DNA from: Candidatus Saccharimonadota bacterium
Lineage (GTDB): Bacteria > Patescibacteriota > Gracilibacteria > Absconditabacterales > Absconditicoccaceae
Direction: 5' to 3'
DNA: 32,000 nt
NCBI GenBank assembly: GCA_000503875.1
Contig: CP006913.1
Location: forward strand, 1,050,001-1,082,000
Of this stretch, positions 1 through 30,656 are shown piece after piece. How positions within the stretch are numbered: the stretch's first letter is position 1; the number at the start of each line of letters is the position of its first letter. A program made the translations under genes and the position numbers. The notes beneath the pieces were generated by a model that was not told where the DNA came from, searched no databases, and worked only from the letters and a program-made list of their open reading frames with translations.

Positions 1-338
1 TAGGAAGATCCAAAGAAGAAAATAAAATAAGAAATGAGAAACAAAAAAAATATAAAAATCCCGAAATAATTAATGAAAAAATATATGAAATTGCAAAACA
101 AGTAAATCAAAGAAACCACATAGAAAATAAATTTGATAGATATTTCAATCTTGACGCTACGAAAACAATATCTGAAAAGCTTCATGAAACTCTTGAAAAG
201 AAAAATATTCGTTTTAAAAATCCAGAAACTGCAGGGAAAATAAGACATATTCTTTCTGAAAAAGATAATTCAGAGAACCTTTCTGATGATGATTTGGCTG
301 CTGCTGCTCAAATGGAAGAAGATCAATATTATAGTTAA
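1..338 (+). CDS. hypothetical protein, C-terminal part (open to window edge)
   Basis: Frame 3 is open from the window edge to TAA at 336-338. Lys/Glu-rich with no recognisable motif. Confidence 0.4.
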   Translation, partial: GRSKEENKIRNEKQKKYKNPEIINEKIYEIAKQVNQRNHIENKFDRYFNLDATKTISEKLHETLEKKNIRFKNPETAGKIRHILSEKDNSENLSDDDLAAAAQMEEDQYYS

Positions 339-387
339 TAGTTTTTTTAACAAAAAAATAAGCATTGCTGCTTATCTAGATTTAATT

Positions 388-458
388 CGAGGGATGAGGG
401 GATTGAACCCCCGACTGCGGTTCCGAAGACCGTCATGTTACCACTACACCAATCCCTC
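388..458 (-). tRNA. tRNA-Arg (anticodon UCG)
   Basis: Hand-folded cloverleaf: acceptor GAGGGAT/ATCCCTC, T-loop TTCAATC, anticodon loop CTTCGGA. One A-C mismatch at the top of the anticodon stem. Confidence 0.65.
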
Positions 459-501
459 ATAGATTGAACTGCCCTTAACTTTTCATCAAAAATTTAACAA
501 T

Positions 502-1275
502 TCACGACTGTATTTGATCAAGAACTTCTTGTTTACCTTTTTCTGGTATCTGGGTATCAGACAACAAAAACGCAACAAGCTTATCTCTCATCTCTTCAGT
601 GAAAGCTTTTTTACTTATTTTCTCAAACTTTTCAATAGCTTCGTGCCATTTAGCAAATACTTCCAACAACTCCCAATCATTAGAAGATATTTGATAAATA
701 ATTCCATTATTTGTTTCTACAAGATCTTTTTTGAGAAAGAGTCCTTGCTGTTGAAGCTGTATAATAATTTCATCTAAATATTCTTGATAATGCAAATATT
801 GTCAAAACAAAGGAAGCTGAATTTTTATGGACATCAATTCCCCTGCTTTCGATTCAAATTTTCCGTATAACAACGTTAATCCATACAACAACGATATTTT
901 TTCTTCTATTGAATCAAATTTCCAGTTACAAGGCGCAGGAATCACAAAATCTACATCCCCGCGTGCCCCTGGCCAAAAATACTTCTGTTCCCCGCTGACT
1001 TCGTCAAACGATACAAACAACCCATATCCCTGCGCCATTGCATCACTTTTCAGATTCAACAATCAACATCCAGAATTTTTTACAAAAATCAAATTCATTC
1101 AATCACCAAAATGTTTGAGATTAACTAATTTAAAATCTTTTTTATGAAGAACAACCATTCATTTATCTCGATCAGAAAATTGATACCCAGCAACCTGATA
1201 GGTATATTGTTTTACCTGAAGTATTTCTGGGTGTTCAACGCACAACAAATTATGCTGATCAATGACAAGTTTCAT
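502..1275 (-). CDS. hypothetical protein (257 aa with TGA=Gly)
   Basis: Track ORFs 502..795 and 802..1062 are in the same frame, separated only by TGA codons. I checked for in-frame TAA/TAG up to the ATG at 1273-1275 and found none. Confidence 0.55.
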
Positions 1276-1312
1276 AGACACACAAATATAAGATAAACAT
1301 TATTATCTATGC

Positions 1313-1933
1313 TCAAATAACAACTTTGCTAGGTACAATAACTGTTCTTTGACCGTTTCTTTCTATATAGAATCCTTGTTGAAAAACTTGTACGATTTTA
1401 CCTTTTTGAGATTCATCCTCTACTGGCAATGTAGATAACGGTTCATGTAATAAACTATCAGGAGCAAGTCCCAAAGATTCAATAGGATAAATATCAAACG
1501 ATGCTAATGTTTTTAACATATTGTCATATACCATTTTTACTCATTGGACAAAAGAATCATTATCCTTTGTTGTATCAGTATGATCCAAGGAAGATTTAAG
1601 CTGATCTATTACTGGAAAAAGCTTTTTCATGTATTTAATTAAGGTATCTATTTCCATTGATTTTTCTTTTTCCAAAGACAATCTCTGTAATCTATCAAAA
1701 TCTGTTTTTAGGTTTATATAATCATACTGAACTTTTTTGGCTATATCCAAAGCCTCTTGTTTTTCTTTTTCCAACAAAGAAATTTTTTCTTTATATTCAT
1801 TTTTTTGTTGTTCAGAAGAAATTGTTTCTTCATCAAGTTTATCTTGTTGAACTTTTTTCAAAGCTTCTTCCAAAGAAGTATCTTCTTGAGAGATTTTATT
1901 CTCATCTTTTTTATGTTCGTCTTTTTTTGTCAT
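1313..1933 (-). CDS. grpE: nucleotide exchange factor GrpE
   Basis: Track ORFs 1313..1534 and 1541..1933 join through one TGA, giving QGVKMV. N-terminal coiled coil plus C-terminal GrpE beta domain (FQQGFYIERNGQRTVIVPSKVVI). Confidence 0.85.
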
Positions 1934-1936
1934 AAT

Positions 1937-2668
1937 TTACAACAAATAATCATCTAAAACAGTTTGTTGAACCGCATACCATTCTGCAAAAGATTGGTTA
2001 TTATCACGAAGTATTTGAGCCAAATCAGTTCATAAATATCTTCGATGTCGACTCTCTTCCATTTGTCCATCTATGTCGACTCATTTTTGATAACTATTAT
2101 GAAATCATCGGTCGGCACCTTTTGTAATAAGCCATTTATAGTATACACTTCATTTTGTAAGTGCTATATATTTACCTTTTTTGGTCATAATACCCAAATC
2201 GATAGCAAGTCATAATTGATGTTCACTAGACCCTACTTCTGCACATTTTAAACGAGAACATCATTTTTTTAATAATGATTCTTGAAATTTTGCCGATCTA
2301 TACGTACTAGTAATAAACAACTTATCTCATTTATTATCCTTCCAAAAATGCCAAGCCAAATCGGCAAATTTTTCTGCTACCTCTTTTCTCAAAAGAAATC
2401 TACTAGCTTTATTTGCAGTAAAGTCTGAATCAATAGCAACAAGGTCAATAGGAACATATGTAGAATCAACTAATAATTGTCAATTACCAAGATATTTTTG
2501 TAAAGAAAGGTCTTCTTTTGTATTATATATAGAAAAATAATTTGGTTCTTGTTCATAAAATTCTATAACCTGATCTTGCATGGCAACAAATCATCCCCAA
2601 CCAAAGACACCACCTAGGATTAAAGATCAAACCAACAAACGAAATCCAGAATATTTAACAATATTCAT
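1937..2668 (-). CDS. VanY-like D-alanyl-D-alanine carboxypeptidase (peptidase M15B)
   Basis: N-terminal TM segment. Motifs TSTYRSAKFQ, SEHQLGLAID and RHRRYLG. Frame checked: only TGA interruptions. Confidence 0.75.
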
Positions 2669-2825
2669 GTACAAATACACAAAACAGATAAAAAATCAGA
2701 TTATATATAGCATTTTATTCCAAAATTTCAACTCAACTTACTATTACAGATATAGTAACCAAAAATTTGCGTTTTTGACTAAAATCGAATATAATTATAA
2801 AGCTTTATTTCGGCAAAACAACTAA

Positions 2826-3785
2826 ATGTCCCAAGAATTCATCCAAGAAATAATACAAACGAGTATTCAGGCAATAAAAGACAACAAAGAGACCAAAAAG
2901 ATATCAGAAGAAAAAGATGTTATAGAAAACACCGAAGATTTGCTTGTAAAACAAAAAAAAACAATTGTAAAAAAATATATCGAGAAAAAAATCGATGATC
3001 CAATTCTTCAACTAACATGAGTTGCAGAAGATTATCTTGTAAGCGAAAATATTCGAGATAAAATAAAAGATAAATTCGTTTTCGAAAAATTCTTAGAAAA
3101 AAGTAATCTAGAAATCAAGACTTTAAACGAAATGAAAGATCTTAAAATAGCGTTGGAAAATGCAGAAACTAAAACAAGTTTAGATCAAATTGAATCTGAT
3201 TTTTTAAGAGAAATACCTGAAGAAAAAGAACAAGAAAAAGAACAAGAAAACAAACAATGAACTGAAAAGGCCCCAGAAGAAAAAGTAATTCCAGAATGAA
3301 CTCCGGGGAATTTTGACGCCCTTCCAGAAACTTACAAAACCTACATAAACAAAATTTCCTCAAAATTCCCCGACCCGAAAAAGTCTCAGATTATAAATTT
3401 TTGACCTATCGTTGTACAAGAGGCTTTAAAACACAAAGAAACAAAAAAAATTGTTGATAAAATTTTTGCACAAATTAATAAAGAGTCATGACGAGATCCT
3501 AAAGCATTAAACGACAAATGAGAACACAGTATAGGATTTATGCAGATAAACAAAAATGCTGGCCATACATGACATATAAATGGACAATTTTATAATATAG
3601 ATGAACCTAATTGAAATATTGCCTATGGAATAAGTTTCCTTGCTGAATGTATAAGAAGGTCAAACGGAAATATTAGAAGAGGTTTTAATATATATAATGG
3701 ATGAGCAAACCTTACCAAACCAACCAAAGACCAATATGCTGAATCTATTATGAAAGATAAACAGTTTAAAGAATATTTAGCTTAA
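2826..3785 (+). CDS. lytic transglycosylase domain protein (SLT-like)
   Basis: 319 aa with TGA=Gly. C-terminal NKESGRDPKALNDKGEHSIGFMQINK (catalytic E-S and GxMQ motifs). Frame checked line by line. Confidence 0.65.
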
Positions 3786-6700
3786 TTTTTATCAGAAAGA
3801 ACATAGATAATTTTTGTTTCGGCAAGTTTATCATGAAGTAACTGCCCATTTTCTCAAGTCCAAAACAAATAAAGATTATACACCCCTAATCATAAATAGA
3901 TAAAAAGTCAGAACATTGCTGCATATCATCAAATCAAAATAGACAACAATCATGTCAAAACCAATGGTCAAATTAATAACAAAAGAAACCAAAACATTCT
4001 TTTTGAAATATGTTTTTTGCTTAAATTTTTTCCATGTAAATCAACTATTTTCATATTCAATGCATCGTGATTTTGTGTCGCACCATTATTTATCCATTGC
4101 ATATATTGTGCTTTAAAATACCAAATAGCATATATTATCAAAAGCAATACAACAAATACAGCAAACCAAACAGATCATAAAAAGCCCAACTCAAAGAAAC
4201 CACTAAATAATATGAGGCCAATAAAAACAACTATTGGTCGCTTAATAAAATTAAAAATTGGAATCAATGCCCTCTTAACAAGCAACACAATTTTTTGTTT
4301 ATCATAGAACAAAGATGGTAGAGCAAATAAGTTTGAAAAAGAACCAAAAAGTAATCAAAATATAATTGTAATAGCCAAGGTTTTCCAAAAATCATCATTA
4401 ATTACTGATGCTAAACCAAGGGTTGCAGCCAAAACATTTACAATAATAGGCTGTAATCTTGATCTGCCAGCATATCTAATAGCTTTCAGAGGTTCCATAC
4501 CTATCCTAATATTCTCGTTTATTTTATAAAGACACAAAATAGAGTCGTTTACTATAATACCTGTCAAAGAAATAAATCAAATTCCAAACATAATACTATA
4601 AGCATTACCAGTTACAAACAATCAAATATTAGCTCCCAATAATCATACAGCAATACTATACATTATGATAGCTGGTTGGAGATAACTATTTAATTGGAAT
4701 ACCAAAATACCAAATATAGCAAAGATCGCTATTAAAAATGCCATCAACATAGCATTTATTAAATCCGCATTTTCTTGATTTTCACCAGACTGTTTATAGG
4801 TGATTCCATCAGGAAATATATACGAAGAAGCGTAGGTATCTAATTGTGATTGAATTTGATTTGATGTATATCATAACTCAAGATTAGCGTCTATAACAAT
4901 AGATATTTTTGTATCCTCTCTCGAAACTGCGCTTATAGCATTATCAAAAGAATAAGTAGATATATCGCCAAAATTAATTTGACCAGCTTGTGTATTTATA
5001 TTTATTTGATCTAAATCAGAAGGAGTCATTCATTTATCAAAACCATCATATTTTAATTTTATATTATGATTGTCTAGCTGTCATTTTAAAGTTCAAGCAT
5101 TTCGCCCATTAGTTAGTGCATATAAATCTAGATACAAAGACCCTGGCGTTAGTCATAACATAGAAAGCTTGGCAGCATCAAGAGTATAAACAAACTGACC
5201 GGGCGTTTCTTGAGAAGAATTTCAAACATTCTTGACACCAGGAATATCACGTAAATAGTTTTCAAAATCTCTAGATATCTCTATAAGATTTTGCATTTTT
5301 TTGTTTGAATCAGCAATAAGTTTAATTCAGACTTCTTTTGTTCCTGGAGGTCAATCTTTTAATGCAGCTATATTAATTCTAAGGCCGTACGATCTTAAAA
5401 AATTTAATTCTTTATCAAAATATTTTTCAAGAACAAATACATTTCTCATTCAATCTTTTTTTCTCTCTATCGGATCCAAAAATTCCAAATTAATAGACAC
5501 AGAATTTCCCATAACATTATAACTATATACTTTTATTTCAGGGGTATTTGCCAAGATATCATCTAAAGTTTGACCAGCTTTATTGGTAAAATATAGCTGT
5601 TTTTCCATTTCTTTGTTAGTTAATCCTTTCTTCCCAACAATAGACATTGTCATATATCAATTATCATTATCCGGAAAAAGTTTAAATCAAATAAGTGGAG
5701 CAAGGAACACAAAGCTAACCACCAATCCTATAAGCGGAATCATAACAGCCCAAAATCTTCTTTTAACATTTTCTGTTACCCAAGTAATTTTTTCAAAATA
5801 CCAATCATTTATTTTATTTAACATATTCTCACGAAAAGAAAGACTTTGATGATCTTTTTGTTCCTTATCCTTTCTATCATCCTCCAAAAGAGCAAGATCT
5901 TCTTTGTTCATATATTGTATTTGTTCTTCGTCATTTTCAAAGTAATTTTTTTTCTTGGCTATTTTGAAATAAAGGGCAGAATTTATAGTCAATCAAATAA
6001 ACAATGCTGCAAGTAAGGTAGAGAAAATAGTTATCGGAATATATGCCAAAAATTTTCCCATAATACCAGGTAACATAAGCATTGGTAAGAAAACAACAAC
6101 ATTGGTTATTGTCGCAGTGATTAATGGTCACTTATATTCTTTAACAGTTAATAAAATGGCATTTTTGGGATTGTATCAAAGTTTTATTTTTTCATTTGCT
6201 CACTCTATAATTACGATCGTAGTATCTACCGCTATAGAAAATGTAATCAAAAAACTAAAATTGGTCAAAAAATTTAACGTCATTCCCATCTGATCAAGGA
6301 CAATAAACGTTACCAACAATGCCAGAGGAAATGTAGTCGCTGCAATCAATGATTCTCTAATCCCAACCAAGACAAGCAAAGACAAAAATACCAAAACAAT
6401 ACTTTGCAAAAAATTATTTATAAGGCCATCATAATCTTTACTAATTAATTCTGACATATCGCTCGTATACAATACACTGAGTCAATCATAATCATATTTA
6501 TTCAATTCATCTTCCAATAATTCTTTAGCAGAAGTTGATGCGTCAAAAATATTCGCACCAGATTTTTTATTGAATTTAAGAGCAACATAATTTTGTCCAG
6601 TGATTTGATATGCTCATAATCTATAAAAATTATCATCATTTAATCTCTTTTCTATTTTTGCGATATCTTTGAGATAGATAAATCATTCACGTGTTGTAAT

Positions 6701-9300: not shown

Positions 9301-9540
9301 TTATTTTTTAATACGAGCTAATTCCTCTTGCATCATAGAGACAAAAGACTCCAAATCTGTAGATTTAATAAGTCAAATAGCCTTACCATGTTTCACAGTG
9401 ACTATCATACTATCACCAGGGTTAAGATCTATCATTTTTCTCACTTCATTGGGAATAACAATTTGTCCTTTTGCACCGACAACAACATTACCAAAAATTT
9501 GAATATTTGAACACTCTGGATGATTTGAATCTATCTGCAT
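9301..9540 (-). CDS. AbrB/MazE/SpoVT-family DNA-binding protein
   Basis: 79 aa. GQIVIPNEVRKMIDLNPGDSMIV is a typical SpoVT-AbrB looped-hinge-helix motif. Confidence 0.7.
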
Positions 9541-12611: not shown

Positions 12612-12860
12612 TTATTTCCTCAATACATACAAACAAAAGAATCTGAATATTTGTCTATACTGTCTAATTTTATATAACGATCTACCTTTATTTTTCATAT
12701 TGGCTAGAAATTCACGAAACATTTGCTGATTAAACATCTCCATTGATCCATGACACCAAAGAAAAAACAATCCAAGATAAATACAATATCTTTCAACTTT
12801 TTTCTCACTATAGCCCCTAAGCAACAATTCTTGTTTGAATTGCATCATAAGTTTCGCCAT
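12612..12860 (-). pseudogene. remnant of a second tyrosine recombinase (N-terminal SAM-like domain only)
   Basis: MAKLMMQFKQELLLRGYSEKKVERYCIYL...IRQYRQIFRFFCLYVL aligns by pattern with the N-terminus of the neighbouring integrase (LSRELQQRNYSPRTVEIYSNCL...INLYKEVIKFFCSQIL). It stops after about 82 aa and has no catalytic domain. Confidence 0.55.
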
Positions 12861-12900
12861 AATACCGGACATAAAAGATAAATTTAAACAAACCAAGGAA

Positions 12901-13002
12901 GAGAAAGATTTCCTTATCAAAGGACCGATACATCCTCTCCCTCATGTTCGCCGAAATTCTAACAATCCCAAAAAAGAAAAAAACTGACAAAAGTAGGACA
13001 AA
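12901..13002. repeat. 102-bp direct repeat, copy 1
   Basis: Matches 14423-14524. The core CTC(C)CTCATGTTCGCCGAAATTCTA[A/G]CAAT[C/T]CCA[A/G]AAAAGAAAAAAACTGACAAAA[G/A]TAGGACAAA is near-identical. It ends exactly at the integrase stop codon. Confidence 0.85.
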
Positions 13003-13815
13003 CTATAATGGACTCTGAATGCTCTGTAAATTATGTGTCGAAACCTGGGTATATATCTGCGTCGTTTTGATCGACGAATGTCCAAGTAATTTCTGAATAT
13101 AACGAATATCTGTCCCATTTTCCAACAAATGCGTCGCAAAACTATGACGCAAGGAATGAAATGACGCCTTTTTCTGGACACCCGACCTGAGCAAGGCATC
13201 CTGAAAAATATGCTGTGCGGTTCTCGAATGTAAACCCCCGCCTTGCTCAGAATGAAATAACGGATCCTCATAACTCTTGCTTTCCATCAACATTCTTATT
13301 TCTCCCATAATTTTCTCTGGCAAAATCGTTATCCTATCTTTCTGTCCTTTGGCTGATTTAATATGGATAATCTTTTTATCGAGATTTATATCTCCTACTG
13401 CCAAATGGATCACTTCCGAAACTCTCAAACCCGCACCATATGCCAACGCCAATAAAGTTTTATGCTTCATATTGGACACACTATCCAGAATTTTTTGAAT
13501 CTCCTGACGAGACAAAATAACGGGCAATGTGCGTGGCTGCTTAGAAAGCTTAATATCCAAACGGATAGACAATTTCAAAATCTGACTACAAAAGAATTTA
13601 ATCACTTCTTTGTACAAATTTATGGTCTTCGGCGCTCTACCTTGAGATTCCAAATAAAGAATAAAATCAATGACCTTTTCACGATTGATCTTCGACACAT
13701 CATACTCCAACCGCTTCAAAAAAGACCTCAAACAATTACTATAAATTTCCACCGTCCTCGGACTATAATTTCTCTGCTGAAGCTCCCTAGAAAGCTGACT
13801 TACATAATCTTGCAT
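13003..13815 (-). CDS. tyrosine-type site-specific recombinase (XerC/D-sized, IntI-like C-terminus)
   Basis: 270 aa, no TGA. Catalytic boxes AYGAGLRVSE, KGQKDR, HSLRHSFATHLL and LLGHSSIKTTQIYTQV. Ends in QSPL. Confidence 0.9.
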   Translation of the reverse strand: MQDYVSQLSRELQQRNYSPRTVEIYSNCLRSFLKRLEYDVSKINREKVIDFILYLESQGRAPKTINLYKEVIKFFCSQILKLSIRLDIKLSKQPRTLPVILSRQEIQKILDSVSNMKHKTLLALAYGAGLRVSEVIHLAVGDINLDKKIIHIKSAKGQKDRITILPEKIMGEIRMLMESKSYEDPLFHSEQGGGLHSRTAQHIFQDALLRSGVQKKASFHSLRHSFATHLLENGTDIRYIQKLLGHSSIKTTQIYTQVSTHNLQSIQSPL

Positions 13816-13839
13816 GATAACTATTTAAATAATAAAAAC

Positions 13840-13867
13840 TTGATTTTTAAAGATTATTTATTATAAT
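13840..13867 (+). promoter_or_regulatory. candidate sigma70-type promoter (TTGATT-16 nt-TATAAT) facing away from the recombinase
   Basis: Hexamers at 13840-13845 and 13862-13867. AT-rich background makes chance matches likely. Confidence 0.3.
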
Positions 13868-13890
13868 ACAACCATCATGCTTACTTCTTG

Positions 13891-14015
13891 TAGGCCCCAC
13901 CCTATCAATAGACAGATAGGGTAAACTATGCCTTCGGGCTCCTACCCCGCAAAACACTGCGGGGGAAAACTATCAAGAATCTTCTGGGAAATACATCAAT
14001 CTCAGAAGTTTTTTT
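13891..14015 (+). ncRNA. candidate structured RNA or DNA element (GC-rich, four helices, cUUCGg tetraloop)
   Basis: Hairpins: CCCTATC/GATAGGG (13900-13921), GCC-TTCG-GGC (13930-13939), closing TAGG/CCTA (13891-94/13941-44), CCCCGCA/TGCGGGG (13945-13964). These are followed by CTTCTG/CAGAAG plus a T7 run (13981-14015). Confidence 0.35.
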
Positions 14016-14395
14016 ATATGTTCGAATTCTTCCTTTGACATCAAACCTATTTTAGTGAAAAATCTTTGAGTATCAAAAGTTCTTCATTGACTATTAACGA
14101 TAAAAGATTTTCTTCTGAATTTTACGCTTTGGAAGGCTAAATAATATTTTTCACTATTTTATTTAGTAGTCATAGGCAGAGAAAAATACATATTTCAAAT
14201 CACACTTACAACCAAAACAGGCCTAAAAAATCAATCCTTACCAAAAAGTTCTCTTCAAACATTAGCTCAAATCTTAATATATCGAATTTCTCTTGGTTTG
14301 GGATAAATAATTTTATGAGATCTATTAAGCTTCTTTTTTTCTGAATTCCAAAGATCAAATGTTTTATCATTCAAACAAAATTCTTGCATTACCAT
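13970..14395 (-). pseudogene. MazF/PemK-like toxin interrupted by an in-frame TAA
   Basis: With TGA=Gly: ...WNSEKKKLNRSHKIIYPKPREIRYIKIGANVGRELFGKDGFFRPVLVVSVIGNMYFSLPMTTK-TAA(14159-14161)-NSEKYYLAFQSVKFRRKSFIVNSQGRTFDTQRFFTKIGLMSKEEFEHIKKLL. The PemK-type pattern continues in the same frame after the stop. Confidence 0.6.
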
Positions 14396-14422
14396 AAATA
14401 ATACATATAAAAAATCAAAAAA

Positions 14423-14524
14423 GAGAAAGACACTCATATCAAAAGAGCCAAAACCGTCTCTCCTCATGTTCGCCGAAATTCTAGCAATTCCAGAAAAGAA
14501 AAAAACTGACAAAAATAGGACAAA
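14423..14524. repeat. 102-bp direct repeat, copy 2
   Basis: See copy 1. On the minus strand both copies contain an extended -10-like TGnTAGAAT (copy 2 at 14478-14486), upstream of the toxin here and of the recombinase remnant in copy 1. Confidence 0.85.
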
Positions 14525-14620
14525 TATCCCACTATCACAAAACCATCCATTTTACACCCATTTCACGCCACACAACGTCACAGCAACAACCCCTTTGACC
14601 ACTTATGCGCCACTCTCATG

Positions 14621-14656
14621 TCGCACAAAACCTAGTTGTCGGACATCTACTTTTTG
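14621..14656 (+). other. half-site resembling the 3' side of the hairpin family (candidate primary, attI-like recombination site)
   Basis: CTAG|TTGTCGGACAT compared with ACG|TTGTCTGTCAT (A) and ACG|TTGTATGACAT (B). There is no hairpin to its left. It is preceded by a CA-rich tract with CGCCAC direct repeats at 14566 and 14608. Confidence 0.4.
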
Positions 14657-14789
14657 TTTCAAGCGGAACCTTTTTGATTTTTTCAGAGTGGAGGTAAAAA
14701 CTAGAAAATAGGGATTGACTTTCCATAGTAGATATATATGTACCTTACAGGTAATAAAATATAAAACTAAATAATGGAGAAAATATATT

Positions 14790-15065
14790 ATGGAAATTTT
14801 AATAAAAGGTACTAGCGTGAAATTAATCCAACAATGGATTTCTACAATGTTAAACGACATTAAAAATAATAAAATTTACTGCTCTACAAAAGAGCGTAAA
14901 TTATTCGCTGTAAGCGAAATCAACAGAACTAGATTACAAATAATGAGAGACATTATGCCTACAGAAAGTGACTTGCCTACTTATACTGATACCGAAAGCA
15001 TGAAAATGGATCAAGAAGCACTAAAAAAGTATTTATTAGACATGAAAACATTTTTGGAAAGTTAA
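14790..15065 (+). CDS. hypothetical protein (91 aa), unit 0
   Basis: ATG preceded by GGAG, intact ORF, followed by a strong intrinsic terminator. Confidence 0.5.
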   Translation: MEILIKGTSVKLIQQWISTMLNDIKNNKIYCSTKERKLFAVSEINRTRLQIMRDIMPTESDLPTYTDTESMKMDQEALKKYLLDMKTFLES

Positions 15066-15086
15066 CAATCATTGTGAAATTTGTTT

Positions 15087-15114
15087 AAGCCCGCTTTTTT
15101 CGGGCTTTTTTTTA
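15087..15114 (+). terminator. rho-independent terminator
   Basis: AAGCCCG-CTTTTTT-CGGGCTT stem-loop followed by a T run. Confidence 0.75.
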
Positions 15115-15191
15115 TACTTTTAATTTCCTCCATAATTCATATATTTCCTTTAGTAAACATTTCCACTCAATAAACAAAAAGACATAAACAA

Positions 15192-15279
15192 CAAAAAGAT
15201 AGATCATCCAACAACAGGCTCTGCTGCACATACATTTGTACGTCCAGCTAGAGCCAGACGTTGTCTGTCATATCCCTTA
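15192..15279 (+). repeat. hairpin site A (attC-like)
   Basis: ACAAC-a-GGCTCT-GCTG-[cACATACAtttgTACGTC]-CAGC-t-AGAGCC-agac-G|TTGT. Core 15211-15264. Confidence 0.7.
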
Positions 15280-15447
15280 TAACTAAAAAGTCCTTTCTGA
15301 AAGAAATTTGGAGGGGATTTTTTATTTTAATTTAGATTTTTTATAAAAAAAAGAAAAACTTGTAAGGAAATATAGAATTTCTTTAAATTATTTAAATTTC
15401 TATTTACACTAAAAAAACAAAAACATATAAATCTTAATAAAAAATTA

Positions 15448-16518
15448 TTATTTTATAAGAAACCTTAATTTTTCAATAATTTTTTCAATTAATGGTTCGG
15501 CACTTTGACCATTTAAAAGAGGCAAAAAAGACTTTATTGTATTATTGAGTAATACTTTATCTTCATTATTTAAAACAAGTTTATTAGAAGAATTAGTTAT
15601 TCTTCATAAAACCAAATTCGCAAATATTTTAATCATTAATTTTTCAAAAAAACTACGTAATTGAATTTCTAGTTGATCTCCTTCTAATGTTCGTATATTG
15701 TTTGGAATGTCAAGTTTTTCTTTAACTATATATTCAAGTTCTTCAATAGATCAATTTAATCATATAATTCAAATTGTTTCGTCATTAGAATAATCTTCTG
15801 AATCATAAAAATTCCAATCTTTAAAATTTTTTATATCATTCAACAAATTTAATTCTCTAGTGGTAAGATTTCCATAACAAGATTTTTCTTGTTTTAATGG
15901 AGCGTCATATTCTTGACTAAAATATTGTTTTTTTTTAGCATAAGATAAAGCATCTTTCTTTTCAAAAAAGAATGCACTTCAAATTAAATCTTCTGACACG
16001 AACAGCGATCAATATCATATTGACATATTTTCTTCATAAATTCAATAAGGATTCCCAGCATAAAACCGACCCTTTTTTTGTTTTAATTCATTAATCATCT
16101 CATCCTTATATTCACCAGGTTCTTCTAGACCAAGCTCAATCCAAGAGTCTTGAATAATGATTTCTCAACCATTTTTCTTTTCATATGGAATATTAATATA
16201 TGCTATTTCATAAACAGGATATCAATAACGAATATCTTTTCTATTTCTTTTTCCTTCTTCAGTTATTTTAATTATATCATTAATTTTTTCTATAATCATT
16301 TTTCTATCTCAGATACCATGAATAGTAACTTCTTTTTTTCATGAAGCAAAAGAACTATTAAATAATTTTTTTTCAATTATTCTTGCTGTATTTCATTTTT
16401 CTTGCAAATCATTAATTATATTCTGTTTAGTTTCCCCTTCTACGACTTTTTTTCATTTTAAAACAAATCATTGTTCTTGTAAAGATTGATTGTTTCTTTG
16501 TTTAATTTTATCAGTCAT
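15448..16518 (-). CDS. hypothetical protein (356 aa with TGA=Gly), unit 1, inverted relative to the other units
   Basis: Frame checked line by line: 15 in-frame TGA, no TAA/TAG. ATG at 16516-16518, TAA at 15448-15450. Absent from the standard-code track. Confidence 0.65.
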
Positions 16519-16547
16519 AATAATTTATAAAAAAATAAACATACCTG

Positions 16548-16575
16548 ATTATACTCCCCCCCCTAGATTTGTCAA
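16548..16575 (-). promoter_or_regulatory. consensus promoter TTGACA-16 nt-TATAAT with a G8 tract in the spacer
   Basis: Minus strand reads TTGACAaatctaGGGGGGGGagTATAAT. The -10 lies 29 nt upstream of the unit-1 ATG. C8 on the plus strand at 16556-16563. Confidence 0.6.
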
Positions 16576-16730
16576 ATTTTTTAGGATTTTTTTTATTTAG
16601 GTGGGAAATGGGGTGTTTACTGTGTTTTTGAAAAAAGTCTAAAAAAAAGAAATTTTCTTTAATTTTTTGGTTGATTTATCTTATTTTTATCTTAATTTAA
16701 TTTAGAAAAAATCCCCTCCAAGTAATTAAG

Positions 16731-16811
16731 TAAGGGATACAAACAGACAACACGCACTATCCTACATACAAGCTACAGTCGGATCAGTGCGAAACGTTGT
16801 ATGACATAGCC
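16731..16811 (+). repeat. hairpin site B (attC-like)
   Basis: ACAAC-a-CGCACT-ATCC-[tACATACAagcTACaGTC]-GGAT-c-AGTGCG-aaac-G|TTGT. Core 16747-16800. Confidence 0.7.
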
Positions 16812-16885
16812 TAATTGGATTAAGAAATTAAGGAGGAGCAATTTTAATTTAGATTAGATTTTTTTAGATTTTAGAACCAAGAAAT

Positions 16886-16913
16886 TTGCTAAATTCAAAT
16901 AGATGATTATAAT
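16886..16913 (+). promoter_or_regulatory. candidate promoter TTGCTA-16 nt-TATAAT for the unit-2 ORF
   Basis: Hexamers at 16886-16891 and 16908-16913, 30 nt upstream of the ATG at 16943. Confidence 0.4.
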
Positions 16914-16942
16914 TTAAGTATTTAAATTATAATATAAATTAA

Positions 16943-17644
16943 ATGTCTTCATTAAATGCTTATAACTATGATGAGAATATTGATACAATAGAATCTGATA
17001 AATCTGATATTTTAGAAAAAAATATATATTCGGAAGAAAAAGCACAAGAATTTAAAAAATGATTAGATGCAGAAAAAGATACAACAAGAAGAAAACAAAA
17101 CAAGATAGTAAACCAAACAATAAATGAATTTATTTTGGCTTCTTATCCATTGAATGAATGATGAGAAGAACATTTAAAGAAAAAGTTTTTAAAAATAGGA
17201 GATTGTTATGAAAATTGAGTAAAAGCAGTTGAAATTACAAAATGAGTAAATAATTGAGCAGATCTTATGTGAATATATCAAAAAAAAATTAAAGAAAACG
17301 AAGAAAACATTAAAACGACAGACAAAGAAGAAAAAATACAAATGAATTTTAATAAATTAGTTGAAACATGTAAATGATTAGGAAAAAGAAATAAAGAACA
17401 TATCTTCGCACTTATTAGTACAGATTGATCAATACATTTAGTAAACGACATAGACACTGGACATTATATAATACCCAAATGATTAATTGAAAATTGAGAT
17501 ATATGAAGCTTGGCTAAACCAAATAAAATAGATCCAAACAAAATGGAACGATGAGGTGATCCATTTAATTTAGAAGACCAAGTCTTAGGTGATAAATTAT
17601 TAGAAGTATGAAAAAATGAATCTCTAACAAATAGTAAAAATTAA
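16943..17644 (+). CDS. hypothetical protein (233 aa with TGA=Gly), unit 2
   Basis: ATG to TAA with about 14 in-frame TGA and no TAA/TAG. Absent from the standard-code track. Confidence 0.6.
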
Positions 17645-17700
17645 TTTAGATTTTTTTAATTAAATTTAGAAGAGCCTTTCCTTTTAGTAATTATAGTTTT

Positions 17701-17772
17701 AATTACGGACTACGAACCTACAACAGCCGATACACGACATACACATTACGGTCGTACATCGGCGAACGTTGT
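17701..17772 (+). repeat. hairpin site C (attC-like)
   Basis: ACAAC-a-GCCGAT-ac-ACGAC-[ATACAcatTACg]-GTCGT-ac-ATCGGC-gaac-G|TTGT. Core 17720-17772. Confidence 0.7.
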
Positions 17773-17825
17773 ACGAAAACTCTTGTAGTCTTAGCAGTTG
17801 TACGAAAACTCTTGTAGTCTTAGCA
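17768..17825 (+). repeat. perfect tandem duplication, 2 x 29 bp (GTTGTACGAAAACTCTTGTAGTCTTAGCA)
   Basis: Copies at 17768-17796 and 17797-17825. It begins exactly at the conserved G|TTGT of site C. Confidence 0.9.
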
Positions 17826-17877
17826 AATGAATATTAAATTTACGAAAAGATGTGATTTTATCTTCTCAGCATAAAAA

Positions 17878-18807
17878 ATGGAAATACTTCCACAAAACTT
17901 AAAAATCAATCATAAGAAGACAGCAATGATTGCAGAGAAAATATCTGAGACAAAACAACTTGAAATAATATGAAAGAAAACACAGAATCCAGAAATAAAT
18001 ATTTGGTGATACGATCGACTTATTCATAAAATGGAACCTCATAGAATCACTTTTTTCGATGATGAAGAAAGTACCATTGAAATCAAAATTTGAAGATGAG
18101 ACTATTTGCAGTTTAATAACGAGAAAATTTGGGATGATAAACTCAAAGAAGAAAAAATTAAAGGTGTAAAGACATGAGATAAATCTGTTGAAAGAGCCGA
18201 AATAGAGGGGAAAGAACATTTTCTACTAGGAAAAAGTTACAGGTTCAATTTTGAATTTTTTATACCTGAAAATTTCCCAATAATAGACAATAGACTGGTT
18301 ATTTGACAATGGAAACAACAATTTGAAGAATGAACAAAAAACAACGCTCTCATTGCCCAAAGATTTAGGAACTGAAAATACACAATATCATTTAATCCAA
18401 CCTGAGATCCAAAGGGAAATTGATGAAACGTTAATATATGTGAATTAAATGCTAAAGACGTTCTATGAAAACGAATCCAGACAGAATATGAGATAAGATT
18501 TTCAGAAGACGAAGATGGCTACATCAAAATACGACATAATTGAAATTTTCTTTGGGAATATCATGGTAAAGTAAGTTCAAGTAGTAAAGAATATCCAGTT
18601 TGAAAATACTATAAAGACAACTTTTTCTTCAAATTTTGACTATACAAAGATAGCTACGAAAAAAGACTATTAGAACTAGAAAACGAAGAACAAACAGACG
18701 AAAACCATAAGAAAATTGAAGCTCTAAAAAAAGCAATAGACGATGAAAATAACTGAAAACTTATGACCGTTTATTTCAAAAACTATAAAGTGGAAGAAAT
18801 AGGATAA
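17878..18807 (+). CDS. hypothetical protein (309 aa with TGA=Gly), unit 3
   Basis: ATG at 17878, TAA at 18805-18807, about 16 in-frame TGA. The track shows only a spurious antisense ORF here. Confidence 0.6.
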
Positions 18808-18854
18808 AATTAGCTCTTTTATTTAACTATTCATGTTAAAAATAGATAATCAGA

Positions 18855-18919
18855 ACAACTACAAAAGACTTTCACTTTGCTCGCAGTCAATACACGACAT
18901 ATACATCGGCAAACGTTAT
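18855..18919 (+). repeat. degenerate or chimeric hairpin site D
   Basis: The left part is ACAAC-t-ACAAAA-GACT-[loop]-AGTC. The right part, ATACACGACATATAC-ATCGGC-aaac-G|TTAT, copies the right arm of site C but has no partner for ATCGGC. Confidence 0.5.
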
Positions 18920-18959
18920 CGAGTTATCATAATATTATTTTAAATAATAATCATATAAC

Positions 18960-19457
18960 ATAGAACTCTTAAAAGAAATTACTGATACAAAATTTCCTGA
19001 AACGGAATTAGGTATAAAAATCAGGGAAGCTTCAAGAGCTGTAATTTTTGATGATAATGGACAGATTCCTTTATTGTTTGTTTCGAAACATAATTACCAT
19101 AAATTACCTGGTGGTGGTTTTGAAATAGGAGAAAACAAAAAAGAAGCATTGATAAGAGAAGCTAAAGAAGAAGTCTGATGTGAAATAGAAGTAATTGATG
19201 AAATTTGAAAAATTATTGAATTTCGTTCTAAAAGAGATCTTAAACAGACTTCATATTGTTATTTATGTAAAGTAGTTTCAAAAGGAAATCCTGATTTCAC
19301 AAAAAAAGAATTAGATGAATGATTTAAAATTATTTGGGTATCTCTTGATAAAGCTATATATTTAATCGAAAACGATAAACCAGATTATTATGACAATTTC
19401 TTTATTCAAAAAAGAGACATCGTTTTTTTAAAAAAAGCAAAACAAATAAAAAAATAA
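18960..19457 (+). CDS. Nudix hydrolase
   Basis: Nudix box GGGFEIGENKKEALIREAKEEVGCE, with the conserved G of EEXG encoded by TGA (19176-19178). The frame opens at 18951, but there is no ATG/GTG/TTG before the conserved core, so the start is uncertain. Confidence 0.7.
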
Positions 19458-19562
19458 CTGAATATTTAACGCTTATGCTCTACAAGATAGATAACAGGAA
19501 TTATCTGAATATTTAATGATGAGAAACCGACATTATTCTTCTTTTATTTACTAATACACCTT

Positions 19563-19856
19563 ATGGAAACAAAGACAAAAAGAATAAATATCAAAAATAT
19601 TATCAGCCGATTCTTTGGAATACTTTTTTTGACAATAGCTATATTAAATGCTGTTTTAATCCACCGAGTACCTGGAGTTCTCTATACTCTATTTTCGCTT
19701 ATTTATTTTCCTCCAATCCAAAAAATAGCCAGAAAATTCTTTAATTTTTCAATTCCTTTTTTCCTAAAAATACTCTTAGCTTTGGTTATTCTTTGGTGAA
19801 CATTGGGCGTAGGCGATCTTATGGAACTATTTGAAACATATATGAGAACCAAATAA
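19563..19856 (+). CDS. small membrane protein (97 aa)
   Basis: Track ORF 19563..19799 extended through one TGA to TAA at 19854-19856. Two to three hydrophobic segments. Confidence 0.5.
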
Positions 19857-22524: not shown

Positions 22525-23109
22525 TTATTTCAATAATCAATGCATTTTTAATGCTTCAATGGTTTCTTTGGATATATTTTCAATAGATTGGTTGGCATTT
22601 ATGTGAATAATTTTACCCAAACCATCCAAATACTCAATCACAGGTTTTGTCTCCTTCTCGTAAATATCGAGCCTGGTACGAACTGATGTTTCTGTGTCAT
22701 CTTTACGCTGTTCTATCTTTCATCTAGCAACAATTCTTTTAATAGCTTCCTCTTTATCCAAGACATAATGAATTCATACAAAATCCCTTTTATGTTTATA
22801 TTGTTGATTGAAAAAATAGTATAATTGGTCTAATGTTCTCAAAAATCAATCAATAAGCATATATTCTCCTGGTTTCAAAAGATGTTGGTAAACATCAAAC
22901 AGTCCAAAAATAATGGCATCATCGACCATCTTTCCTTGATCCATACAATCTCTAATATGCTCCCCCAAGACATTGTCATTAGATTTCAATGCCCTAAGAA
23001 TCTGACCTGGTTCAAAATATTGATATCCTTGAATATTTTTCATCAATAAATCAGCCTGAGTTCCTTTTCACGAACCTTGTATCCCAAAGAGAATAATGTC
23101 TTTTTTCAT
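22525..23109 (-). CDS. adk: adenylate kinase
   Basis: P-loop GIQGSGKGTQA, with the G before K encoded by TGA (23068-23070). Continues through track ORF 22846..23046 to TAA at 22525. Confidence 0.85.
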
Positions 23110-23341
23110 GGATAAAAGTATAATTATAAAATAAATATTTTTAAAAATCAATTGAGCAATAAAAAGAATAAACAAAAGAAGAAAACATCAACAAACCAAT
23201 ATTATTCGTAGCCAAAGCAGGAATTTAATTATTACAAGACTTTACACTCAAACAAAGATACTGCTTTGATGGTTGATGAATTTTGTTTGTTTTTTATTGC
23301 AAAACAATCTTAAGCAACAAATCAAATATACTGATTTTCTC

Positions 23342-30582: not shown

Positions 30583-30656
30583 AGCGGATAACGGGACTCG
30601 AACCCGTACGAACAGAGCTGAAGTCTGCTATGCTACACCAATTACATCATATCCGC
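30583..30656 (-). tRNA. tRNA-Gly (anticodon UCA), the UGA decoder
   Basis: Acceptor GCGGATA/TATCCGC (G1-C72, C2-G71, G3-C70), discriminator U73, anticodon loop CTTCAGC, T-arm ACGGG-TTCGAGT-CCCGT, normal 74-nt size. Confidence 0.8.

Follow-up and report, generated by a model that had tools for sequence, protein, structure and literature searches.

What kind of element is a chromosomal run of gene-sized units in which each unit ends in a hairpin and begins with sequence that would complete the stem of that same, distant hairpin? The question is raised by a 32,000-nt stretch of contig CP006913.1 (positions 1,050,001 to 1,082,000 of the forward strand), which was analyzed at its full length and is referred to here as the window. 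Its host is the candidate division SR1 bacterium RAAC1_SR1_1; the recombinase and two of the cassette proteins discussed below are identical to proteins of that organism. Our results suggest that the region is probably a chromosomal integron-like gene-capture platform with a Xer/IntI-related recombinase. This reading draws on the structure and covariation of a family of hairpin sites, on unit boundaries that comparison between genomes places exactly, on the rule that the start of a unit pairs with its own hairpin and not with the one it touches, on the linkage of the arrays to the recombinase, and on selection for folding of the bottom strand. The interpretation of the units as integron-type cassettes, circles that are cut upon insertion, is supported at the level of sequence.

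Hairpin sites and the ends with which they pair

The array in the window comprises the following features, on the plus strand unless stated otherwise (ORF, open reading frame).

14636..15260, plus strand: putative cassette 1, with an ORF at 14790-15065 (91 aa, hypothetical) and a terminator at 15087-15107
~14645-14693 and 15161-15205: outer-stem halves of cassette 1
15211..15264, plus strand: site A, an attC-like hairpin, ACAAC-A-GGCTCT-GCTG-loop(18)-CAGC-T-AGAGCC-AGAC-G|TTGT
15261..16796, plus strand: putative cassette 2, with an ORF at 15448-16518 on the minus strand (356 aa, no family match)
15270-15324 and 16705-16740: outer-stem halves of cassette 2
16747..16800, plus strand: site B, an attC-like hairpin, ACAAC-A-CGCACT-ATCC-loop(18)-GGAT-C-AGTGCG-AAAC-G|TTGT
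16797..17768, plus strand: putative cassette 3, with an ORF at 16943-17644 (233 aa, hypothetical)
17720..17772, plus strand: site C, an attC-like hairpin of 53 nt, identified by covariance model and folding
17769..18915, plus strand: putative cassette 4, with an ORF at 17878-18807 (309 aa, polysaccharide-lyase-like; Pfam PF14099, 6e-14)
18855..18919, plus strand: site D, a decayed hairpin with right half ...ACACGACATATACATCGGCAAACG|TTAT and a mutated left L box
18916..19562, plus strand: distal variable segment, with a NUDIX ORF at 18951-19457

Sites A, B, and C share one rigid layout of 53-54 nt, and all fold better on the minus strand (for site A, -16.5 kcal/mol with z -4.7, against -10.5 on the plus strand). 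On the left the layout runs through ACAAC, one A, a 6-bp stem, and a 4-bp stem to an 18-nt loop with ACATACA; on the right it returns through the 4-bp stem, one extra base, the 6-bp stem, and RRAC to G|TTGT. Stated generally, a site consists of an R box (GTC-NNNN-AAC / GTT-NNNN-GAC), a small asymmetric bulge, an L stem with an extrahelical base, and a variable loop. A simple regular expression missed most sites and was replaced by covariance models, built from the three window sites, rebuilt from 21 matches, and used at a threshold of E<0.01. Relatives were collected by a scan with one genome per species, which yielded 21 Absconditabacteria/SR1-type loci with recombinases 61-91% identical to that of the window and also returned many archaeal XerA-like genes at ~40% identity; 80 loci in all (SR1-type plus archaeal and Bacteroidota XerA-like, each denoted by L and a number) were examined with the covariance model. 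Twenty-eight sites at E<0.01 were found upstream of recombinase homologues and on the opposite strand, at loci L001, L007, L009, L013, L017, L020, L021, and L022; the matches for site A scored 82 and 61.8 bits. Among the 80 loci, no archaeal or Bacteroidota XerA-like gene was adjoined by a site at this threshold, two archaeal loci giving only weak matches (E 0.3-0.5).

Across the 28 sites of eight arrays, AAC and GTT are the only invariant parts of the R box, the L stem covaries, and the loop ranges from 18 to ~60 nt, as in an integron array of attC sites. In the aligned sites 89% of cells pair, versus 25-36% with the partner slid; compensatory changes occur in all 10 L-stem pairs, and the covariation score of 0.646 (0.15 for shuffles) was reached by none of 500 shuffles. 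The L-stem cells comprise 232 Watson-Crick pairs, 0 plus-strand G.T pairs, and 19 plus-strand A.C pairs, which are G.T on the minus strand, and the minus-strand hairpin is the more stable one in 24 of the 28 sites, the bottom-strand fold of attC sites. Because most cassette ORFs lie on the plus strand, mRNA structure does not explain this bias. The minus strand is the strand with AA|C at the exchange point, and on it the 5' arm, which is also the arm of AA|C, carries a 3-nt pyrimidine bulge and the extrahelical base; the spacer is 1 nt versus 4 nt in 26 of 26 aligned sites, which departs from the canonical arrangement of extrahelical bases and spacers. In canonical attC sites the extrahelical bases lie opposite the arm with the bottom-strand triplet, and their placement drives strand choice (PMC5027507), so that the geometry here is inverted.

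A preliminary description of the locus had proposed that the sequence best extending each hairpin stem lies one unit upstream, at the start of the unit that the hairpin closes, and had offered three cases, all of whose quoted sequences are found where it placed them. For comparison, the 3' end of a unit was joined to each possible unit start, and the junctions were folded with DNA energy parameters at three flank lengths. The first two cases hold. In one, 14636-14656 is complementary to 15192-15214 at ~19 positions; the circularized junction of unit 14636-15260 folds at -19.6 kcal/mol, versus -9.7 to -13.0 for in situ and permuted junctions, and the outer-flank duplex alone ranks 0/34 against other partners. 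In the other, 15261-15279 is complementary to 16731-16750, and 15310-15323 pairs perfectly over 14 nt with 16706-16719; the circularized junction of unit 15261-16796 reaches -21.4 kcal/mol, or -35.9 with longer flanks (others, -10 to -17), and the outer-flank rank is again 0/34. The third case, site C, did not stand: the own junction of unit 16797-17768 folds at -13.9 versus -15.0 in situ, which is chance level, with four R-box matches for the own pairing and four in situ and an outer-flank rank of 16/34. The left flank of site C pairs about equally with the adjacent start of cassette 4, and own-unit pairing was rejected for this site. For the unit ending in the decayed site D, the own-unit gain is weak (-11.4 versus -7.0 to -8.7).

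Extended to the 28 units of eight arrays from the window and seven related genomes, the proposed offset is borne out, with a summed own-unit score of 152 that was reached by 0 of 20,000 permutations. At R-box positions 4-9, complementarity is 79-93% for own pairings, 25-79% in situ, and 28-70% when permuted, matching the integron property that R' derives from the next cassette and that the first bases of a cassette complement its own R''. At position 10 the C/A mismatch of the top strand corresponds to a G.T pair in the bottom strand, and positions 11-12 are conserved mismatches, with an outer duplex usually beginning at position 11-12. Within the outer flanks (positions 10-70), duplexes with the own partner have -14 to -26 kcal/mol, compared with ~-8 for other partners; 20 of the 28 cassettes have z below -2, and in 20 of the 28 pairing runs about 20-60 nt further. 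The pairing is made up of a 9-10-bp R box, two conserved mismatches, and a gapped outer stem and is not simply one long hairpin; the long extension beyond the R box is what the first two cases had picked up. Canonical attC sites are generally described as ending at a 7-bp R box, which would make such an extension unusual. The outer stems have no strand bias and give no indication of which strand folds.

The hairpin family was also observed on a phage-like contig, L112 (IMGVR_UViG_3300031673_000740), with six sites at 310-3531 (plus strand; E 2e-8 to 7e-4). This contig has terminase- and portal-sized genes, TGA appears to be a stop codon there, and the sites separate ORFs of 50-120 aa; by eye, the offset rule appears to hold (own-unit R box), and no recombinase is visible in the 12.9 kb examined. 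A motif ...ACGAACAAAGTACTGATAAAAACAAG|TTGT, present twice, may be an insertion site. Pattern-scan matches on other viral contigs were mostly single chance ones, and only L112 passed the covariance model. On L022, a contig labelled Gammaproteobacteria, a recombinase gene (3642-4457, 46% identical) has a site of the family ~170 nt upstream of its start (3412-3473, minus strand); the recombinase and site family may reach beyond SR1, or the contig may be mis-binned.

The attI-like site, cassette boundaries, and the recombinase

The array begins at a second kind of site, which is flanked by a conserved region and, beyond it, by the recombinase gene.

14618..14646, plus strand: attI-like core, with left arm ATGTCGCACAA, 7-bp spacer AACCTAG, right arm TTGTCGGACAT, and predicted exchange at 14635|14636
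14401..14617, no strand assigned: conserved region adjacent to the attI-like core; 14401-14525 is repeated at 12878-13002 (blastn)
13003..13815, minus strand: tyrosine recombinase gene, XerA/IntI-like, 270 aa, facing away from the array (profile and structure-sequence alignments)

The right arm TTGTCGGACAT is the first 11 nt of cassette 1. Forty-two cassette starts give the consensus G|TTRTNNGACAT, whose reverse complement is the left arm, ATGTCGCACAA (14618-14628). The arms are inverted, 11 nt each, and symmetric at 9 of 11 positions around the 7-bp spacer, which is the arm and spacer geometry of dif; judged by these features, the core is most simply read as that of an ordinary tyrosine recombinase, with exchange where spacer and right arm meet. 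Each incoming cassette would bring a new right arm, which would account for the conservation of GACAT at cassette starts. The entire site (14586-14639) has ACAAC...GTTGT at the 54-nt spacing also seen in sites A and B and does not fold (z = 0.47). The adjacent region, 14401..14617, contains a block, GAAAAAAACTGACAAA, that is invariant in a six-genome alignment, and is probably the promoter/leader of the minus-strand genes. Like the attI of an integron, the site lies upstream of the recombinase start (at 190-1280 nt) and is followed by a different first cassette from genome to genome. Two subgroups can be told apart, one of 13 genomes that keep ATGTCGCACA(A/G)AA(C/G)CTAG|TT beside the recombinase and one of 7 genomes that keep CAGATAGCGACGAG|TT there; in both, identity runs to ...CTAG|TT or ...CGAG|TT and divergence sets in immediately beyond.

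In L015-L021 (e.g., L020, ~770-822), the attI-like site is a two-stem hairpin, ACAACTCGTC-CCTT-ATCTGC-loop-GCAGAT-AGC-GACGAG|TTGT, and the site of this second subgroup might be recombined in folded form, unlike that of the window. L005 and L011 have a conserved attI-like site with a cassette-type right arm and no hairpin sites within 3-5.7 kb upstream of the recombinase, and they may be empty platforms.

Comparison between genomes places the boundary at the same point. The window is syntenic with L001 up to 14637 and again from ~19577, a position within the next gene; homology between genomes breaks exactly at G|TT (14635|14636), and five contigs end exactly at the attI-like exchange point. 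Breaks at G|TT recur in more than 20 genomes. L015 and L017 are 99.6% identical over 731 nt up to GAG|TTGT and unrelated after it; in a comparison aimed at a clean one-cassette indel, L015 proved to have a scaffold gap 30 nt past the exchange point, and nothing beyond the gap matched. In L003, the attI-like site directly precedes the start of the window's cassette 3 (first 32 nt). The preliminary description had each unit as a former circle whose long hairpin was cut at G|TTGT. The circle logic is supported by these comparative data, and the cut is better written G|TT: only GTT is invariant there, position 4 being G or A. Its suggestion to look for the same units in other contexts was also productive. 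Cassette 2 is found in L017 with the same 3' inner hairpin B (at L017:2652-2715), another hairpin before it, and other sequence after GTT, the ends including site B being 86-90% identical to those of L017 cassette 6. The hairpin therefore travels at the 3' end of the cassette, with the exchange point within GTT; exchange would take place in the GTT of the right-hand box, as in integrons. Both ends of cassette 1 are homologous to a cassette of L007, which stands there between two hairpins and not in first position, and more generally ends of ~100 nt are common to several cassettes of different genomes that carry different cargo.

The units of the eight arrays are 480-1600 nt long, with one main ORF and leaders of 45-160 nt, and the longest ORF lies on the array strand in ~24 of the 28 (counted by hand). 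Searches of NCBIfam and Pfam returned no family for the ORFs of cassettes 1-3. The inverted ORF of cassette 2 has its own predicted promoter, running from 16575 to 16548, with 12 of 12 consensus positions, and a promoter-like site in cassette 3 (16886-16913) has 10 of 12, in scans that matched consensus only; no Pc, the common promoter from which the promoterless cassettes of canonical integrons are expressed, was identified by these scans. An exact 29-bp tandem duplication, two copies of GTTGTACGAAAACTCTTGTAGTCTTAGCA at 17768-17796 and 17797-17825, starts at the exchange point of site C and leaves two potential right arms after one hairpin; it may be a product of slippage or of aberrant recombination. 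The right half of site D resembles site C minus 13 nt, and the site does not fold (z = 0.16). A search for an intact terminal hairpin where the variable region ends on the right (18916-19577) found none.

The recombinase passes the curated threshold for XerA (NCBIfam XerA_Arch NF040815, 227.8 bits with a cut-off of 220), a model whose name is "site-specific tyrosine recombinase/integron integrase." Against the integron-integrase model TIGR02249 it scores 193.6, under the cut-off of 265, with the match split in two stretches. Its best relative among solved structures is Pyrococcus XerA, and Pfam assigns a Phage_integrase and a SAM-like N-terminal domain. In the alignment with VchIntIA (2a3v), query residues 10-200 and 204-270 match 11-205 and 251-317, ~45 aa of IntI are missing, and IntI residues 206-250 are opposed by 3 query residues; the additional IntI-specific domain around patch III, which IntegronFinder uses as a criterion, is thus absent. 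The inverted placement of the unpaired bases is consistent with the absence of this domain, which binds those bases. The conserved tyrosine-recombinase motifs appear to be retained, as read by eye from the translations. All 20 intact homologues measure 270-279 aa; the gene is damaged in L001 by an in-frame stop and in L004 by a frameshift. Homologues at 61-91% identity adjoin arrays in seven other genomes.

Between the recombinase gene and the attI-like site lies one further gene.

13970..14389, minus strand: PemK/MazF-like gene, upstream of and co-oriented with the recombinase gene, with an in-frame TAA at 14159-14161

Its read-through translation matches Pfam PF02452 (31.7 bits, cut-off 23.1), and L021 has TGA (Gly) at the position of the interrupting TAA. 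A PemK-like gene is found in about half of the related platforms, with the same place and orientation in L004-L006, L008, L014, L015, L017, L020, and L021, and is missing in L009-L011, L013, L016, L018, and L019; in platforms that lack it, just ~190 nt separate the attI-like site and the start of the recombinase gene. The gene may belong to the platform. In the window it has no protein antitoxin gene as a neighbour, and a MazE/AbrB-like gene is located 4.5 kb away, at ~9301-9540 (minus strand). A candidate structured RNA of ~140 nt was observed between the recombinase and PemK-like genes (13840-14015, plus strand; no Rfam match), with a promoter, TTGATT-16-TATAAT (13840-13867), an intrinsic terminator, three conserved hairpins, and 8 covarying pairs over six genomes. 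Given its convergent orientation to the PemK-like gene and a ~45-nt overlap with the 3' end of that gene, it could be an RNA antitoxin. A conserved 82-aa ORF at 12612-12860 (minus strand) resembles only the N-terminal SAM-like (core-binding) domain of tyrosine recombinases. It is not a truncation, since L001, L002, and L004 all have it intact with 82 aa, and it may encode an accessory or regulatory protein; it is preceded by 12878-13002, the copy of the attI-proximal segment 14401-14525.

The G+C content of the window is 30.5%, and TGA is a sense codon: long ORFs appear only when TGA is translated, and the P-loop of the adenylate kinase (22525-23241) has TGA at a glycine position (GS-x-KGTQ). 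A tRNA with anticodon UCA at 30583-30656 (minus strand), which ARAGORN labels SeC, is the tRNA-Gly(UCA) through which SR1 bacteria recode UGA (PMC3812714). The genome paper on RAAC1_SR1_1 reports UGA as glycine and mentions no integrons, integrases, or cassettes (PMC3812714). Rfam searches of the entire window and of 13780-14100 returned tRNAs only, with no match for the hairpins or the small RNA.

Proposed mechanism and alternative explanations

In the mechanism that we propose, the recombinase would act on two kinds of site, the double-stranded attI-like core and the hairpin at the 3' end of a cassette, with strand exchange at G|TT (AA|C when read on the bottom strand). With exchange at this point, the first 9-10 nt of a cassette, and usually 20-60 more, would belong to the cassette's own far-end hairpin and not to the one it touches. 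Excision between successive sites would release a circle with a whole long hairpin, and insertion at the attI-like site would cut that hairpin again. The enzyme would catalyze exchange on a single-stranded hairpin, with resolution by replication and with circles as intermediates. More speculatively, the outer stems might pair the ends of an integrated cassette in single-stranded DNA and so bring its exchange points together. The model leads to the following expected junctions.

Circle of cassette 1: CAGCTAGAGCCAGACG|TTGTCGGACATCTACTTTTTG
Circle of cassette 2: GGATCAGTGCGAAACG|TTGTCTGTCATATCCCTTAT, also written GGATCAGTGCGAAACG|TTGTCTGTCATATCCC
Empty site on loss of cassette 1: CGCACAAAACCTAG|TTGTCTGTCATATCCC
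Empty site on loss of cassette 2: CAGCTAGAGCCAGACG|TTGTATGACATAGCC

Several observations weigh against this reading. No recombination product or circle was observed, and three assemblies with an identical recombinase, from one common sampling site, have identical arrays, which means that no within-population variation was seen. The stop in L001, the frameshift in L004, and the decayed end of the array indicate that parts of the system may be inactive. Positions 4-7 of the R box pair poorly in situ (1.7 of 4), and site C, site D, and several cassettes of relatives give no own-end signal. The covariance model was trained on the same sites that it aligned, and a model-fitted alignment biases pair counts toward the structure; given the slid controls and several matches outside the training set, we argue that the covariation signal in these alignments is nevertheless real. 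The unpaired bases lie on the arm for which the canonical rules predict poor use of the bottom strand (PMC5027507). Finally, the recombinase lacks the IntI-specific domain, which the integron literature holds necessary for attC recombination (PMC9668308, PMC8138268); surveys define integron integrases by this extra domain (PMC9668308), and by that definition the platform would not count as an integron.

The alternative that survives best, which we nonetheless consider unlikely, is that the recombinase is an ordinary dimer resolvase, of the single-recombinase kind known from XerS/difSL and archaeal XerA, with 14618-14646 as its dif, and that the cassettes resemble integrative mobile elements exploiting Xer (IMEX), hijacking it via a single-strand hairpin, in the manner of CTX phage and XerCD, and piling up at dif. 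The mechanics of the cassettes would be alike, and the difference would lie between an exploited housekeeping system and a dedicated gene-capture device. Such a resolvase would be expected to have the XerA affinity seen in both the family match above cut-off and the solved structures, and its site would have the inverted 11-nt arms and 7-bp spacer found here; the position of the site can be likened to that of difSL, which adjoins its recombinase gene, and the platform lies near the same neighbour gene (a p21473 homologue) in distant relatives. Xer function has also been presumed for a "Cand" subgroup of Xer-related recombinases of candidate phyla (PMC8138268). However, there is no terminus signature: GC skew is -0.2 at both 9-14 kb and 22-28 kb, the same sign on either side, and the flanking genes diverge and do not converge, which leaves a terminus at this location unsupported in the 32 kb examined. 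In many genomes a toxin-like gene and an RNA gene stand between recombinase and site, and the cassette ends are tightly adapted (GACAT, CGATC arms, R box, bulge), more like co-evolved attC sites than occasional parasites. The damaged recombinase copies add a weak argument against a sole or essential resolvase role.

It is very improbable that the hairpins are ordinary intergenic repeats (terminators, or like repetitive extragenic palindromes [REP]), with the offset as a by-product of a repeat family and no unit mobile. Hairpins between ORFs and the lack of population variation would fit such repeats, and the shared ~100-nt end families could inflate the complementarity statistics; however, the breaks of more than 20 genomes coincide exactly with G|TT, one cassette was found together with its hairpin among different neighbours, all arrays are tied to one recombinase family in one orientation, and cassette 1 has a separate classical terminator at 15087-15107. 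An RNA terminator is also disfavoured by the stems themselves, whose G.T bias is to the minus strand while most ORFs and mRNAs are plus-strand. Least probable are single-strand transposons or rolling-circle elements (IS200/IS605-like or IS91/Helitron-like) with an HUH enzyme encoded elsewhere, to which subterminal hairpins, inferred circles, and strand-specific folding would be suited, but for which the window offers no HUH transposase and instead head-to-tail units at one locus beside a tyrosine recombinase, junctions that all share the GTT/AAC triplet typical of tyrosine-recombinase integron sites, and an attI-like core with two inverted arms and a 7-bp spacer.

Relation to known systems

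Taken as an integron-like gene-capture platform, the system would work like an integron, yet it departs from integrons in two of their defining features. As in integrons, for example the sedentary Vibrio cholerae superintegron with VchIntIA and its V. cholerae repeats (VCR), a divergent recombinase gene and an adjoining attI are followed by head-to-tail cassettes mostly of one ORF, each with the same imperfect palindrome (R box, unpaired spacer, L box with extrahelical base, variable loop). The invariant AAC/GTT, the exchange at G|TT with R' from the next cassette, the better folding of the bottom strand with G.T pairs, and the resemblance among sites of one array are also shared. The differences begin with the ~45-aa IntI-specific domain, which is lacking here, and the unpaired bases, which canonically lie on the opposite arm (PMC5027507). 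The spacer is 1 nt/4 nt rather than 5-6 nt on both arms, the R box has 9-10 bp with a conserved GACAT/CGATC flank, and in most cassettes complementarity continues for 20-60 nt past it. The cassettes have leaders of 45-160 nt and, by prediction, promoters of their own, and the host is a candidate-phyla bacterium with genetic code 25.

With Xer/dif systems (archaeal XerA/dif, XerS/difSL, and CTX phage attP via XerCD), the platform shares the XerA affinity by profile and solved structure and a double-stranded site with inverted 11-nt arms and a short spacer beside the gene. In the case of CTX phage, an Xer enzyme without the IntI domain recombines a folded single-strand hairpin, with one strand pair exchanged. 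The platform differs from these systems in showing no sign of a replication terminus, in having single-gene cassettes and not phages or islands, and in the ordered arrangement of its hairpin sites, whose R/L architecture is of the integron type. The pdif modules of Acinetobacter plasmids (XerC/XerD) are likewise small gene modules with Xer-type sites in varied contexts, but their sites are double-stranded, 28 bp long, alternating in orientation, and without a hairpin, whereas here direct-repeat hairpins are served by what appears to be a dedicated recombinase gene. The L112 phage-like contig, with its six sites between small ORFs, is comparable to reported attC sites and integrons in phage genomes, for which canonical attC/IntI definitions were used (PMC9892861). 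Among the papers searched, nothing relevant was found on integrons in Patescibacteria, Gracilibacteria, Absconditabacteria, SR1, or the candidate phyla radiation, and none described an integron from this lineage.

With appreciably less confidence, and as a suggestion that stops a little short of an even chance, the platforms may represent a separate integron-type lineage, present in Absconditabacteria/SR1 and on at least one phage-like contig, with a Xer-like recombinase that lacks the IntI domain, mirror-image unpaired bases, and outer stems that pair cassette ends; it would then be either a survivor from an early stage intermediate between Xer/dif and integrons or the same solution invented independently.

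By the prevailing definition of integrons, the extra domain of the integrase reads the extrahelical bases of attC and is seen as the innovation that enabled recombination of single-stranded cassettes. If the system described here is active, the IntI domain would not be required for gene capture of this kind, and these platforms would offer an obvious point of comparison for the origin of integrons from Xer-type recombinases. Such platforms are probably missed by standard surveys, for which the IntI domain is a requirement and whose gene calling may ignore genetic code 25. If the reading is true, bacteria of the candidate phyla with tiny genomes would have a dedicated route of gene exchange, and the hairpins would be a second family of structure-specific recombination sites, with possible use in engineering.

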